A DNA stretch of 62,855 nucleotides from a virus (taxonomy: Duplodnaviria > Heunggongvirae > Uroviricota > Caudoviricetes). The first letter of the stretch is position 1, and every line of letters starts with the position of its first letter. Below are positions 12,001 to 18,000 of the stretch, piece by piece. The stretch lies in IMG/VR virus record IMGVR_UViG_2534681831_000041; one strand, 5' to 3'. Position numbers: made by a program.

Positions 12001-15000
12001 TAATCGTTGTACGCCTCTTCAGCTTTTTCGCCAGTGAGTGCCAGTTGGGCTTCTTTGGGTAAAAAAAGGCTGCTCATAAGCAATGGTTTATCGGGGAACA
12101 TGCTGATAAGCTCCTGCGCCCGATCATCAATCCATTTATCCTTTTCATCCTGAATTTGCTGATTAATCCAGCGACGCTCCTCTATGCGGTCGCAGGTGAG
12201 GTATGCGTTCATGGCGGAACTCCTGATTCCGGTTAATGCATTAAATTAATTTGTCGGGAAAGCTGACATACAGGGCAGTTACATTCTTCCTCCTGCTCCT
12301 TAGCGAAGAAATATGCAGCGGCCTGTAATGCGATGTCTTCTGGATGTTCCGCGATAAACATAACATTGCCTTCCGTATCAATAACAGAAATAGCCTCATC
12401 AGACAGGATGACAAAATAGGCGATGATTTTATCATCCATAAAAACTTCTCCCATTATCGTTCCTGCTGGAGTTACGACGCTTTTTACATTGATATTTATT
12501 TTTTGATTGAGCATGATATTTCCTTTCAGGCTGGTGAGATTAACGGTTGGCCTTTATTGTTCAGGTAAACTTCTATTGCATCTGAGATAATGCGAATTTT
12601 TTCAATCAGTGAATGTGCGTAAAGTGCATTATTAACGTTCGCTGACGCCATGTAATAACGCCCGTTGTAAAGAATTGCTGTGCCGGGTTTAACGTCCTCG
12701 CGAGAAACTAATGCGGTTCCGTAGTGAGGTTTGAGCATGACAAATCCTCCGGTTAATTAATCCAGATATTTTATTTAATCCCCGATATGTGATCGGGGAT
12801 GGGGTTAATTAAAGATTAACGTTGAAACCAAAGCGGGAAGATTTTTCCGATGTGCGGGAAATATCCAGCAATTTACGGCGCATTTCTTCCGTCAGATGCT
12901 TGAAGGCGTTAAATTCGGCGACAGCGGCGTCAACGTTATAGCCTTTGCTGTGTAGCTCATTGAGGATGCGCATAGTTGGGCTTGGCATATCGAAGAGCAC
13001 GGAAGCATCAAGGCTGATAACCTTGCGATCAACATAGTTCATCGTGGCGTAGGGATGGTTATCTGAGAACCACGAGAGAGGGTAGTTGATAGATAGCGTT
13101 GATTCTGGAAGCTGAAGTTGTTCTGGGATTTTTTGACTGAAATAGCAGTCTTCCAGTTTTTCGAACACTTCCCACGCCCGATCGGTTTCGAGCATTTTTG
13201 CGTGACGGGCTGCGCCGCGTTCTGTCCAGAGGATGAGGGAGCGAACGTTACGGGCGATTTTCACAGAAGGTCTTAAAGACATGCTGTGCTTAAATTCCCG
13301 CAACTCCTCATTCTCAAGTAAAAAGTAGTGCTTACCGATAACAAATCGTCCAGAATTCCGATTGAAATTTTTTCGGATGTAATCTGGTTCTGTGCCATAT
13401 AAGCTGGCAAGAAGCTCTGTAGTCACCACAGGTATATTACTAAATGAAATTATGGAGAGGGACTCCACGGAGATGGTTTTCATGCTTTGCGTCCTACTTG
13501 ATATTTTGATTTACCCCTTTTGAGAGGGTGACCGGGCGCTCAAAACCGCAAGTAGTCGGCGGGCATATTCCCATTGCTGGTATTGTATTAGCCGCACGCC
13601 CGGTCATAAACCAAGAAGACTGGACACAAAAAAAACCGCATGTCTGTCGGGCGCGGTAACCGCTACTTGCTAAGGTGTTTTGAGCACCATGAGGCAGAAT
13701 ATATCCCCGTTAATGCAGCATTGTCAAACGATCTGTTCTTTAAAGACTTAACGAGAAGCCTTTTCGGGAATTTCGATCTGACAGTCTTGAAATATCCTGT
13801 AGCGTGCGGCGCATTTCTTCCGTCAGATGCTTGAAGGCGTTAAATTCGGCGACAGCTGCATCGACGTTATAGCCGTTACGACGTAATTCATTAAATATGC
13901 GCATTGCAGGGCTTGGCATGTCGAATAAGACGGAGGTATCAAGCTGCAATGTATTTCTATCAACATAGTTCATCGTGGCATAGGGGTGGTGCTCTGAAAA
14001 CCACGATAAAGGGAAATTGATATTCATCGCAGGAGAAGACAGGGCCAGTTGTTTCTGTTCCCATAGTTGTTTTTCCATGCGATCGAATTCAGCAATGTAG
14101 GCTTCTTTGAAAGCAGCGGCTTTTTTACCAGTGAATCCCATCACCAGGAAGACGAATCCGTTTTTGGTGATTTGATAGGCGTTATAGGTATTGCCTCGGT
14201 GTTCAAATTTAACCCGCGAAAAGTTGCGGGTTAAGAATTGCTCAGAGCATTCGAGGGATTCTATTTTCTGAACAACATGGTGATGTTGCTTCTCAAAGAA
14301 CTCTGCGATGTCAATTGACGTAGTGATGGCATTGCCGTTTTCAATAGTTACGGATGGGCGAGAAAGGGGAGAGATAGTAGCCATGATGGCAGCCTCCTTG
14401 ATTGGTGATTGATAACCACCGCTGGAGGTGAGAAGCTCGCTGGCGGTGGACTGTACAGGGTTCTCACAACTGGCAATCAAGGGAACCAGCCCGACCGAAG
14501 TCGGCCCCATACAGCCCACCATTGATAAGATGTGCGTGTATGTTGATACAAAAAAAGACGCTGGCGCGTCTGTATCGCCTCGATTGTCAGCGGGGTGAGA
14601 ATCCCGACACCCGTTTTATGAGGTGTTCGCCCAATATAGCCCCAACATCACACGCAGTCAATACCGTCCTTTCTCAGAAACGCTTTGGCGGTGCCGCCTG
14701 CACCCCAAAACATTCCCTGTATTGGTCAGCGCCAACTTCCTGCCAGTGTTGCCCGTTCTCACGCCGTTCTCGCTCTCGCGCGGGGATACTCTCTCATCGA
14801 CCGGATCGCACCCGATGATACAGCACGTTTACGTGTAGGGGTCTAAACAGGTCATTGACGCTGTAAAGCTCCAGATTGTTAAAGAGCATTTTGCGGCGGG
14901 TTAAGTCGCGCCGTACGACTGATTTATGTAGCCCTGTGTAAGGGCGCGATGTTTCTGGCTTGAAATAAATATAACTTGCGGTGATTTTTATGTAAATACC

Positions 15001-18000
15001 GTTGGTGCTTTTTAATAGCGAGAAATTATTACTTAACTGATTTTTAAAGTGATTTATTTTTTAAGGGGGCAGATAACAGGAGGGGATATGCAAAGAAAAA
15101 CCCGGCGCATGGGCCGGGCTATTTATCTGGTCCTGTTCTCATTCAGTAGAGTAGGGGCCAAGAAATCGCACTCCGTTGAAGTGAATAAGATGAGAAGGTG
15201 CATCAGCCACCCATACCTCTGTTTCCCATGCGATTTCACCAAGATATCGCCCCATGATGGAGCGATTTGGAAAAGCGGTCACATAGACAAGTCCGGCTGT
15301 TGATCCGGCAAACAGTCTGGCAAGCTCAGCATGCCGCTTCCCATCAACCGGTCCATGACTGGTGACAGACTCAACCAGTAGCAGCCAGTTTTTCGCAGTA
15401 AAATGTAGCACCACATCTGGCATTTTACCGTGTGAATCCACATCAACACCTAGCCCGGCCAGCAGTGGAGCGTCGAAGTAGCCCCACTTTTCGCCAGTGT
15501 CGCCAGCATAGACCAGCACGCTACCCGGAGCAAAACGTGGGGCGAAGTCCTCTATTATGGCACGGATAAGTTCGCTGTGCTCGCCGGGACTGAGGGTTAT
15601 TTGCTGGCCCGCAGCAATTTCAACAGGGATACGATTCTGTTCGCGCTCCTTAGCATAGCGGGTAACCAGCGTTTCACGCTCGGCTAAATAGGTTGCAAGG
15701 CTATCGTGCCATGCCGGGCTGCCGAAAGTGCGTAGCATGGACAGAGCAGCAGGTTCGATCTGATAAACAGCCTTCGGGCTGTTCACTGGGCGATCGGGCT
15801 TGTCCGGATTGTAGAGGGCTACTCCAGCAGCGCAGAACTGATGCATAGACTGGCGGCGGAATGTCTCACGAGTATTGGGTGCGTAGACCTTGCCGTAGTG
15901 CTCCCGAACCCAATTCATGATTGGTGTAATGCCCACAAGCGGATTTTCCGCGTCGGCCCATGCTTTTCCCGGTGTGAGGTTCAGGAGTGCCAGCAAACAC
16001 AAAGCAGAACGCTCATTCTGCTGCGCTCTGGGCAGGCCTAAGGATGCTATAATTTGCTGAGCGGCCTCAATATAATCATTTTGGTTGTTCATGCAGTCAG
16101 AGCTCCTAGCTTAGCGTCAATATGTTCTTGCGTGAGAGTTTCTTGTTGCATAGCCCACTTGCCAAGCTCTATCAGAGTGTCACGGCTTGGGTACTTAATC
16201 ATCTTGAGGTCGGTTGCATTGACCTGTGTATGCCCGTTGAAGCGACGGAAATACTTATCCACTGCGGTAGTGTTCAGGAACACGGCCAAGCCACGGGCCA
16301 GCGCCTCGGGTAACCCATGTTTGTTCTCATGAAACACGTTCATGTGATTTTCAAATCCCAACACTGAATACTCACTGAAGGTAGCAGGATCAACGACGCT
16401 TGCTACCACTCGGCGCTTTTCCTCCTTCGACGAGAAACGACGCACCACACAATAAAAACCGTTCGGGTAAAGCCACTTTTCTGTCTCGTCGTTGCGCATG
16501 ATTGCGTTGGGTTTCTTCAAACCTTCCACAGGCCAGACAGTGCTACTCATACTCAAATGGCTCGGGTAGATCAGGGGAACAGTTCCTTCTTCTGGCATGC
16601 TGCGCAAATGAGCTTTCAGTCGGAAATCAACTATCGGTCCGGTCGATACCTTCACGCCAATATCAGCCAGCGAACATTGTACGGCAGATGATAACTCAAT
16701 GGCGCTTTTCTCGAGCGTGGTCGGCACATGAATAAACCGCTCCGAATCGTCCGGGTACACAATCTGGTCAAATGGGTGTTCGTAGGTGACCAGGTCAAAA
16801 AAGCTATCATCGGTCGAAGTTGTGACTGTAACAGCCTCCTGACGGCCTCCACGCTCCAGGCGGATGATAATATTTTCCTGCAACACATCGTCATCCCTGA
16901 AAGCTTTGCTACGTGATTCGAACAAATGAATATGGCGGATTGCTGCCCGCTCAAGTATGAAATTACGGAACGGACGGTAATACGGTCCGTTGCAGAAACT
17001 ACGTGGGATTATGGCCACTATCTGCCCGCCAGGTGCAACCTCACCTACAGCCAGTGCAACAAAGGCGGAATACAGATTTACCGTCTCGATACCGACAGTG
17101 CGAAGAGCCTGCCGGTGGGCTGACTGGCTATTGATCTTCTTGTAAGGCGGATTAAGTATTGCATGGGTATAACCTCGATCCTGTAGACCTTCGGCGGTTG
17201 CCAGCTCAATATAATCCCCTTCGATGATGCGGGGCGTCACTCTCCTGTACCCGGTTAAGTGCTTCGCAAGGTGACCACACAGCTTTTTGTCGATTTCGTA
17301 GGCTGTTGCCTCGACAGACTCAAAGCCAAACTCGCCAACCAGCCAACGGTCGAGGAAGGCGCAAGACAGTGCGCCTACACCAGCGCCTGCGTCCAGTAGA
17401 CGGCAAGTTTTCATTGTGCTCGGTGGAAACAAGGAGGCCATAAAACGGGCCACGCCAGAAGGCGTCATGAACTGGCCGAACTCAGCTTTGTGTTTACGCG
17501 CGGTACGGGGAGACAGCTCGCGACGCACGCTGTCTGCGACGTCTAGCTTTTGAAGCATAACTAATCCTCTTTACGTGGCATGATGATGCCAACGTGCTTT
17601 TGACATCCTCCACATTCTTCAGGCGTGAAGGATGTCAAATCACTCTGTGAGCTCAATCAAAAGTCTCATCATTCCACTGCGATTTGATGACCTTTCCGAC
17701 AAACTGGCAGTTTTCGTTACACTCAATCATGTCGAATCGTGGGTTGAGCGGCTCCAGGTACGCTTTACCGCTCTCACGAATGAATCGTTTGAAGGTAAAT
17801 TCATCGCCGTTCATTCGGGCCACGCAAAAATCGCCATCCTCGATTTCCCGTTCAGGGTCAACGAGTATCAGCATACCTTCAGGGAAGCTGGGTTTACCAC
17901 CCTGCGGTGCGGTCATTGAATGCCCCTTGACCTCCAGCCAGAACGACCTGTCACTGGCTTTTGTGGTGGTGGAGATCCATTTAATCGCATCTTTTGCGGT

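Follow-up and report, generated by a model that had tools for sequence, protein, structure and literature searches.

A conserved boxA-linked structured RNA and an IsrK-C4 module in the putative early-left leader of an N-less Stx2a prophage

RESULTS

Layout of the interval between the immunity transcript and the antirepressor genes

The stretch of DNA analysed here (62,855 nt; IMG/VR virus record IMGVR_UViG_2534681831_000041, hereafter the window) is, judged by its sequence, a Shiga toxin 2a (Stx2a) prophage of the Eru1/Oslovirus type. The 741 bases around the interval of interest share 98% identity with Shigella phage Ss-VASD and the Escherichia phages TL-2011c, P13374 and phi191, and the same bases are matched by about 100 further Stx-converting phages of the Oslovirus/Eru1 type. 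Within this interval the minus strand carries a pL-like promoter, an exact ribosomal-type boxA, a 111-nt structured RNA of five helices, and then an IsrK-family small RNA (sRNA) with a C4-type antisense RNA ahead of an antirepressor gene. A preliminary description of this DNA, made from the sequence alone, had pointed to the promoter, a boxB-like hairpin and a short terminated RNA; the exact boxA, the structured RNA (14850-14740) and the C4-type RNA (14526-14439) were not part of it.

The open reading frames (ORFs) leading up to the interval are, in local gene order, cro on the plus strand (18426-18665) and, on the minus strand, cI (18366-17653), a methyltransferase gene (17558-16089) and a gene for a BsuBI-like restriction endonuclease (16092-15139). 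Directly 3′ of the endonuclease ORF lies a minus-strand intrinsic terminator (15099..15120) with an 8-bp stem, six GC pairs and a T-run, which is predicted to end the cI-methyltransferase-restriction endonuclease, or immunity, transcript. Beyond the interval, the minus strand continues with three antirepressor genes, followed by kil, gam, recT, exo, ssb and others.

The pL-like sigma-70 promoter (TTTACA-17-TATATT, 10/12 matches; 14968..14996, minus strand; predicted start near 14961) occupies the position of the annotated O-L/pL in phi80 and of pL in HK225 and HK639. Overlapping its -10 hexamer is an operator-like site, ATCACCGCAAGTTATAT (14969..14985, minus strand), one of only two exact matches of the 17-mer pattern ATCACCNNNNGTTATAT in 62.8 kb; the second match is found between cI and cro (18372-18388). 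Since the motif is common to the pL -10 and the cI-cro spacer, we take the site to be an operator and the promoter to be CI-controlled. Although promoter-like sites as a class occur here at chance level (5 found versus 5.2 expected in shuffled sequence), both promoters of the interval are credible, pL because of this operator motif and the isrK promoter discussed below because the isrK model starts 7 nt past its -10. The preliminary description had thus been right to place a terminator of the restriction-modification operon at 15096..15119 (it is found at 15120-15099), a pL-like promoter at 14968..14996 and an operator-like site on that promoter, the latter two now with independent support from the distribution of the motif.

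Written as ATCACC-N4-GTTATAT, candidate Eru1 CI operators are found at 14969-14985 (minus strand) and 18372-18388 (plus strand), with a weaker one at 15071-15087 (minus strand). Yin et al. 2015 (PMC4587872) reported that operators could not be found in this phage type.

A ribosomal-type boxA is coupled to a conserved five-helix RNA

About 73 nt past the predicted pL start, the window has its single exact match to boxA, TGCTCTTTAACAA (14876..14888, minus strand), to which the segment GCUCUUUA belongs. This 13-mer is the boxA of the rrsH leader, as read directly from Escherichia coli MG1655. Among relatives of the element, TTTAACAA is invariant in 84 of 85 distinct family members, all of those with a complete boxA; the remaining match is cut at its 5′ end.

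Following a spacer of 25 nt (about 25-38 nt across the family), the transcript enters a 111-nt RNA (14740..14850, minus strand) in which two outer stems, P1 and P2, enclose the three hairpins P3, P4 and P5. RNAalifold, run on 26 representatives aligned with MAFFT, first gave a multi-branch structure, which was then refined on an alignment of 25 distinct sequences made with MAFFT only (A4). In A4, 92.8% of the cells are paired and 12 of 30 pairs show compensatory changes, a level that none of 500 shuffles reached; sliding the structure out of register gave 1-7 compensatory pairs. Extending the set to 85 distinct sequences (A6) raised these values to 94.8% and 14 of 30 pairs (0/500 shuffles as high; slid registers 2-7), with the qualification that A6 was fitted to our covariance model R1 and hence leans towards the modelled structure. 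R1 itself matches the window once, at 14890-14736, with 169 bits.

Conservation extends to nucleotides outside the helices. The P4 loop, GCGAUCC, is invariant, and together with GUGAGAACGGG and CAACACUGG it makes up the strongly conserved unpaired positions. The P5 loop reads GAGA in the window and most members, while some variants carry unrelated hairpins of differing length in its place. An Rfam search of 14380-15140 at E values up to 10 returned only C4, isrK and one insignificant match to h2cR; it assigned no family to the five-helix RNA, neither a riboswitch nor a ribozyme. As judged from such comparisons, the boxA-linked structured RNA appears to be undescribed; an earlier account of the phi80 leader or its 'nutL' is possible, the 1988 phi80 papers not being covered here.

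One other reading of the conservation was discarded. An overlapping antisense ORF of ~53 amino acids (aa) might have accounted for it through protein coding, but insertions and deletions are not multiples of three and the changes covary as base pairs. A hairpin with the stem CGGCG...CGCCG appears in the minimum free energy (MFE) fold and ends 5 nt before boxA (14894..14913, minus strand). While 51 of 55 distinct upstream sequences have a hairpin abutting boxA, so do 43 of 55 shuffled ones, which leaves a conserved hairpin at this place at most suggestive.

The element occurs in phi80 and in prophages of many enterobacteria

A BLAST search for distant relatives of the leader returned a block that starts exactly at boxA; identity to it is 93-94% for phi80, HK225 and the Klebsiella phage KO-TP1, and 78% for Edwardsiella phage Edno5. 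In phi80, this block of ~190 nt lies between O-L and an ORF called "N" in Ogawa's record. With two pattern scans of IMG/VR and one genome scan of GTDB the collection grew to 179 loci, whose named hosts or sources comprise Escherichia, Shigella, Enterobacter, Klebsiella, Kosakonia, Kluyvera, Citrobacter and Edwardsiella. A search of 5426 complete E. coli genomes found the element in 224 of them, with no annotation in any of the matches listed. It is also found, unannotated and at the phi80 level of 94% identity, in laboratory E. coli strains (e.g., NZ_CP114892, 488308-488495), where it presumably represents phi80-derived DNA.

There is one copy per locus (99 matches in 99 sources), and its surroundings follow a pattern. 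Measured from boxA, the end of a promoter-like -10 lies 64-66 nt upstream in most loci, even though the promoters differ in sequence; the corresponding distance in the window is 79 nt. The only consistently linked protein family is a CI-like repressor, encoded 5′ of the element in the same orientation in 56 of 62 loci; no other phage ORF within 3 kb on either side co-occurs with the element. On the 3′ side, both the next gene and its distance vary between phages; the common downstream ORFs encode Kil or proteins of unknown function.

PA2-type relatives of the window carry 105 nt more of a phi80-type leader between the structured RNA and the isrK promoter. In phage phi346 (locus L002), for example, these nucleotides (3455-3560) form an insertion relative to the window at ~14692 and are homologous to the phi80 leader 5′ of the 'N' ORF. 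The extra leader suggests that the isrK module was fused onto a leader of the phi80 kind, ~20 nt 5′ of the isrK -35. This recombination joint falls at the place that the "N" ORF holds in phi80.

A boxB-like hairpin upstream of boxA, and the absence of N

The preliminary description had drawn attention to a lambda boxB-like hairpin at 14931..14945, followed by roughly 270 nt that lack an ORF longer than about 30 codons at a place where an N gene might be expected. The hairpin is there as described: GCCCU-UACAC-AGGGC, minus strand, is present in the MFE fold, and the pattern GCCCTN5AGGGC occurs once in the window against 0.04 occurrences expected by chance. Its stem is identical to that of lambda boxB. 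In lambda nut sites, boxA comes first and boxB, with a GNRA-like pentaloop, second. The hairpin of the window instead sits 43 nt upstream of boxA with the loop UACAC, and the homologous leaders of phi80, HK225, KO-TP1 and Edno5 do not have it. The leader is nearly invariant within the Eru1 group, so conservation of the hairpin there is uninformative. Given the wrong order relative to boxA, the UACAC loop and the absence from relatives, the hairpin is probably not a nut boxB, and its interpretation as a remnant of a lambda nut site is not supported.

The coding side of the early claim held. No minus-strand ORF between 14930 and 14660 exceeds 34 codons, and none of 30 early ORFs of the window matches the N family in PHROG or Pfam. 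The same scans found no N-type protein among the ORFs that commonly lie 3′ of the boxA RNA in other phages. This agrees with Llarena et al. 2021 (PMC8044961), who described Eru1 phages as lacking N, cII and cIII; the absence of N in this phage group is therefore already published. The phi80 ORF labelled 'N' lacks an arginine-rich N-terminus or motif, has no Pfam match and belongs to a PHROG of unknown function; it occurs in 4 of the 130 loci that have enough downstream sequence, and in 6 of all 179 element-bearing loci.

Nor does the window carry an analogue of nutR, be it a second boxA or a second copy of the folded RNA. The right operon from pR to Q (18409-23687, plus strand) has neither a boxA nor a strong plus-strand intrinsic terminator, and hence looks naturally N-independent. 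Strong terminators are confined to positions past Q (23733-23752) and past the tRNA cluster before stx2 (24393-24412). At the position of lambda cII, the plus strand encodes a 97-aa ORF (18696-18989) with the arginine-rich stretch RKGNRARRSANTRLR; it belongs to PHROG 852, of unknown function, has no Pfam match, and its family is found in 33 of the 179 loci that bear the boxA RNA.

An IsrK-family sRNA and a C4-type RNA precede the first antirepressor gene

Downstream of the five-helix RNA lies a second near-consensus promoter (TTGACT-17-TATATT, 10/12 matches; 14633..14661, minus strand), whose hexamers P13374 and PA2-type phages retain amid variable flanking bases. Seven nucleotides past its -10 begins a full-length match (model positions 1-77 of 77) to the Rfam family isrK (RF01394; 61.0 bits versus a gathering threshold of 50, E 1.3e-10), delimiting a predicted 76-nt sRNA (14551..14626, minus strand) that ends in a predicted terminator stem and U-run (14571-14556, then T7, minus strand). 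The short terminated RNA noticed earlier upstream of the antirepressor genes, with a promoter at 14633..14661 and a terminator at 14550..14571, thus turns out to be an isrK member with both predicted signals in place; of the labels proposed for it, 'attenuator leader' fits less well than a description as an sRNA gene in its own right that is subject to read-through. Seen from pL, the IsrK terminator is the first strong minus-strand terminator, ~400 nt downstream, with the next at 4532-4514. Between the predicted pL start (~14961) and the ATG of the first antirepressor gene (14384) lie about 575 nt of untranslated RNA, of which the ~490 nt after boxA contain no ORF.

Behind IsrK, the minus strand encodes a C4-type antisense RNA (14439..14526), again a full-length match (model positions 1-87 of 87; RF01695, 77.1 bits versus a gathering threshold of 45), whose MFE fold consists of an outer stem and two hairpins. 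It exposes two candidate pairing segments, a' (CCUUGAUUG, 14482-14474) in a loop and b' (GUGAGAA, 14467-14461) in a single-stranded junction. Both find complements on either side. Upstream, IsrK carries b1 (UUCUCAC, 14601-14595) in a loop and a1 (CAAUCGAGG, 14586-14578). Downstream, the antirepressor leader (14382..14434, minus strand) holds b2 (UUCUCAC, 14434-14428) and a2 (CAAUCAAGG, 14404-14396), the exact complements of b' and a', with a2 overlapping the AAGGAGG Shine-Dalgarno sequence ahead of the ATG at 14384. The a' segment forms 9/9 pairs with a2 and nine pairs, including one G-U, with a1; b' pairs 7/7 with both b2 and b1.

The b segments change together. Among the loci collected, b1, b' and b2 come in three alleles: TTCTCAC/GTGAGAA/TTCTCAC in the window, TTGCTAC/GTAGCAA/TTGCTAC in P13374, and TTAGGAC/GTCCTAA/TTAGGAC. 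Whole-molecule RNAduplex energies of C4 with IsrK or the leader proved uninformative (implausibly large values and a weak contrast with shuffles); the case for pairing is one of exact segment complementarity and covariation. By sequence, IsrK and C4 are new members of known families and of a known type of system. The gene that follows (13740..14384, minus strand; 214 aa from the ATG next to the Shine-Dalgarno) encodes an antirepressor or Rha-type regulator with a Rha domain (Pfam Phage_pRha, 6.5e-26) and an antirepressor C-terminal part, and it falls into PHROG antirepressor and regulator families. A C4 RNA placed 3′ of IsrK, with complementary sites that covary, bears out the early suggestion that antirepressor control works here through RNA.

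Counting this one, the early-left operon has a series of three such RNA-ant modules. In each of the other two, a promoter-like site and a match to sRNA-Xcc1 (RF02221) lie just upstream of an antirepressor gene; the parts of the second module lie at 13522-13605, 13698-13727 and 12809-13483, and those of the third at 5226-5315, 5407-5436 and 4546-5214, all on the minus strand. The Rfam consensus of sRNA-Xcc1 has a fold similar to that of C4.

Other features of the window

Compared with its counterpart in P13374, an intact 339-aa ORF, the RecT-like annealing-protein gene (10963-11983, minus strand) has an additional T within a T-run near ~11821 that splits it; it is either a frameshifted pseudogene or the product of a sequencing error. 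STnc100 (208 bits) and AsxR (88 bits), sRNAs already known from Stx2 phages, match at 25786-26045, directly 3′ of stx2AB (24471-25711). In the late region, a match to the ALIL pseudoknot (RF01497, 116 bits; 52808-52923, minus strand), a frameshift signal of IS3-family transposases, indicates an insertion sequence.

DISCUSSION

A model for the early-left leader

The explanation that fits best, and towards which we lean without great assurance, takes the interval as the head of a CI-controlled early-left operon in an N-less Eru1/Oslovirus Stx2a prophage, equipped with two RNA devices: boxA and the folded RNA as an N-independent antitermination signal, and an IsrK-C4 switch. Transcripts from pL would begin with a ~220-nt leader whose conserved part is the ribosomal-type boxA followed by the 111-nt five-helix RNA. 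As at rrn operons and CRISPR arrays, boxA would recruit the host NusB/NusE-NusA-NusG-SuhB complex, and the folded RNA might stabilise or extend this Nus modification in place of N-boxB or put. Polymerases initiated at pL could then cross the untranslated RNA and the IsrK terminator into ant, kil, gam and the recombination genes. Transcripts from the isrK promoter would start past the boxA signal and hence stop at the IsrK terminator.

The isrK promoter, being downstream of the boxA signal, would give rise to the 76-nt IsrK, most of it ending at its own terminator. Read-through would yield a C4 antisense RNA of the P1/P7 type, whose a' and b' could pair with a2 and b2, cover the Shine-Dalgarno sequence and keep the antirepressor silent. 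IsrK presents the two targets once more, as the upstream pair a1 and b1 on an RNA with a terminator of its own, and may then serve as a decoy or competitor for C4. Such a decoy role, suggested by the complementarities, fits the activating effect of IsrK on anrP in Gifsy-1.

How much of this would need a phage protein is a separate matter. It is possible, if short of probable in our estimate, that boxA and the five-helix RNA together with host Nus factors and SuhB suffice to make pL polymerases resistant to both Rho and intrinsic terminators. With equal caution, such a host-only device might be counted as the third for early antitermination in lambdoid phages, beside N-nut and put.

Relation to known RNA systems

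With respect to the second device, the closest relative is the isrK-orf45(STnc1160)-anrP module of Gifsy-1, in which read-through produces a silent mRNA and IsrK switches on antirepressor translation in trans (Hershko-Shalev et al. 2016, PMC4825925); the same authors noted a resemblance of IsrK to seqA of the P4 CI system. Both modules consist of an sRNA with its own promoter and Rho-independent terminator, then a structured RNA, then an antirepressor gene, and in both IsrK, which in the window scores above the Rfam gathering threshold, is complementary to the downstream RNA. Unlike its Gifsy-1 counterpart beside the antQ gene, the module in the window stands directly behind pL of an Stx2a phage. 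In addition, a2 covers the Shine-Dalgarno sequence of the ant ORF itself, no upstream ORF of the orf45 type was found, and there are three ant modules in series.

The c4-ant systems of P1 and P7 (and P4 CI/seqA-seqC; RF01695, clan CL00128) share with the window a C4-fold RNA made on the same transcript as its target, with a' and b' facing one pair of targets on the upstream side (a1, b1) and another on the downstream side (a2, b2), and with one target at the ribosome-binding site. They also share the mode of allelic specificity, concerted base changes being what defines hetero-immunity between P1 and P7 (review, PMC12197685). The window differs in that its upstream target pair is a separately terminated sRNA, IsrK, in that it has no icd-like coupled ORF, and in that the replicon is a lambdoid rather than a plasmid prophage.

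As for boxA, the leaders of rrn operons (boxB-boxA-boxC), suhB and CRISPR arrays contain the identical 13-nt sequence early in a long untranslated transcript and need no phage N. The boxB-then-boxA order of the rrn leader may have a counterpart in the hairpin just 5′ of boxA in the window (14913-14894), though similar hairpins are nearly as common in shuffled sequence. The window, however, lacks a GU-rich boxC-like motif, and the rrn and CRISPR leaders lack the 111-nt five-helix RNA that follows boxA in the window. The nut sites of lambda, P22 and 21 likewise lie just after pL and contain a boxA; in contrast to them, the window has no N gene, no boxB with a GNRA pentaloop 3′ of boxA and no nutR copy.

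The put sites (HK022 putL/putR and the putL-like RNA of HK639; PMC9378689, NC_016158) are, like the element described here, cis-acting folded RNAs in the pL leader of N-less lambdoid phages. They differ from it in having two stems, ~70 nt (126 nt as annotated in HK639) and no boxA, as opposed to five helices and an obligatory boxA. Model R1 matched neither the HK022 genome nor bases 25000-40000 of HK639, which hold the putL-like RNA; Rfam has no put model. The arrangement in HK639 is nevertheless telling. The first ~55 nt of its pL leader are common with phi80, after which the two sequences are unrelated and HK639 has the annotated putL-like antiterminator RNA. That is, the putL-like RNA occupies the slot that boxA and the five-helix RNA hold in phi80 and the window, and it does so in the left operon only, as here. 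The presence of two unrelated RNAs in one slot of N-less phages is our strongest, if indirect, argument that the elongation complex is the target of the new element as well. Of the early proposal that antitermination works here through a put-like RNA or an sRNA, the RNA basis therefore stays plausible, by way of boxA and the five-helix RNA; membership in the put family was rejected, the sequences being unrelated past the shared ~55 nt and R1 giving no match in HK022 or in the part of HK639 covered.

Alternative explanations

What could the leader be instead? A decayed nutL of the lambda type, with a former boxB, a leftover boxA and a lost N, and with early-left expression that leaks or uses internal promoters, would account for a hairpin that is unique in the window and has the lambda boxB stem, as well as for a boxA without N. 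We consider this very improbable: the hairpin lies on the wrong side of boxA, has the loop UACAC and is missing from related leaders. Moreover, boxA and the RNA have been kept, with compensatory changes, across 85 distinct sequences from at least eight genera; a remnant would not retain 94.8% pairing, and the boxA is the perfect rrn consensus rather than a degenerate one. A living nut-type site that serves an unrecognised protein antiterminator, encoded by the phage, another resident prophage or the host, is a better candidate, if still a rather unlikely one. The conserved unpaired GCGAUCC, GUGAGAACGGG and CAACACUGG do resemble a contact surface for a protein or polymerase, enterohaemorrhagic E. 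coli strains carry many lambdoid prophages, and the 97-aa ORF after cro, with its arginine-rich RKGNRARRSANTRLR, exemplifies what such a protein could look like. Yet nothing but the CI-like repressor co-occurs with the element within 3 kb, the families of the 97-aa ORF and of phi80 'N' are confined to 33 and 6 of the 179 loci, and what commonly follows the element is Kil or an ORF without known function. The version with a host factor merges with the explanation that we favour.

The conserved RNA might also have nothing to do with termination, and act instead as a 5′ stabilising or processing element, a ligand-sensing leader or a trans-acting sRNA cut from the pL transcript, with boxA as a generic anti-Rho tag or a NusB/E-dependent folding aid. 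A multi-helix junction with invariant loops is also typical of riboswitches, ribozymes and protein-binding sRNAs, downstream intrinsic terminators are not universal, and Nus complexes are reported to be RNA chaperones at rrn operons (PMC8632103). We nonetheless regard this as unlikely, in view of the missing Rfam riboswitch or ribozyme match, of a downstream gene and distance too variable for the control of one cistron, and of an element that is always linked to boxA, set at a fixed distance from pL and replaced in HK639 by a put-like RNA, all of which point to the elongation complex. Concerning the second device, one could argue that the IsrK region works chiefly as a tL0, attenuating transcription from pL, given that its terminator stands in the path of pL transcripts, and that the promoter-like site at 14661-14633 is fortuitous, such sites as a class being at chance frequency. 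This seems scarcely credible next to a full-length isrK match that starts 7 nt past the -10, promoter hexamers kept in P13374 and PA2-type phages despite varying flanks, and a Gifsy-1 homologue that is a stable sRNA with its own mapped promoter (PMC4825925); besides, the roles of attenuator and sRNA are not mutually exclusive.

Several observations weigh against the model that we prefer, in which boxA and the folded RNA form an antitermination signal. From analogy and position we infer both the antitermination function and the dependence on Nus factors. For the boxA part, the protection of rRNA and CRISPR transcripts from Rho by boxA alone sets a precedent for boxA-only antitermination outside rRNA (PMC7665894). 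A clear intrinsic terminator was found within 3 kb downstream in 24 of 101 family loci, versus 9 on the antisense side; the idea of universal intrinsic terminators 3′ of the element was therefore rejected, and the usual target of an antiterminator, if it is one, would be Rho, whose targets are not predictable from sequence. Complexes of the rrn type assembled on boxA are poor against intrinsic terminators, so that read-through of the IsrK terminator would require an additional activity of the folded RNA, a purely conjectural step. The RNA is also not unusually stable (z = +0.16 for the full element, +1.3 for a truncated one), which makes the structural case one of covariation, and the covariation counts partly reflect shared ancestry, most family members being close relatives. 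As to IsrK, the authors of the Gifsy-1 study explain its action by refolding of the orf45 mRNA and not by titration of a C4-like RNA (PMC4825925).

Implications for Stx2a phages and their relatives

The main point of interest is a conserved, unannotated structured RNA coupled to boxA, which is plausible as an N-independent antitermination signal. The strains with the highest rates of haemolytic uraemic syndrome harbour Stx2a phages of the Eru1 type, and Eru1-type lysogens are reported to be far less stable than those of 933W (PMC8044961). If the host-only reading is true, the boxA-linked RNA would decide in the epidemic Eru1 Stx2a phages (O104:H4, O103:H25) whether polymerase from pL passes the IsrK terminator. 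Both the antirepressors and the early-left operon as a whole would depend on this passage, and so in turn would prophage stability and the release of toxin phage. For prophages that share a host cell, an IsrK/C4 switch that stands before the first of three ant genes and comes in at least three alleles of specificity leads one to expect cross-talk or hetero-immunity. For the antitermination function that is missing in these phages, the boxA-coupled RNA, which phi80, laboratory E. coli strains and prophages of many Enterobacterales also carry, is the best candidate. Should it prove to be an antiterminator, it would link the boxA mechanism of rRNA and CRISPR transcription to phage development and add a new class of RNA to processive antitermination.

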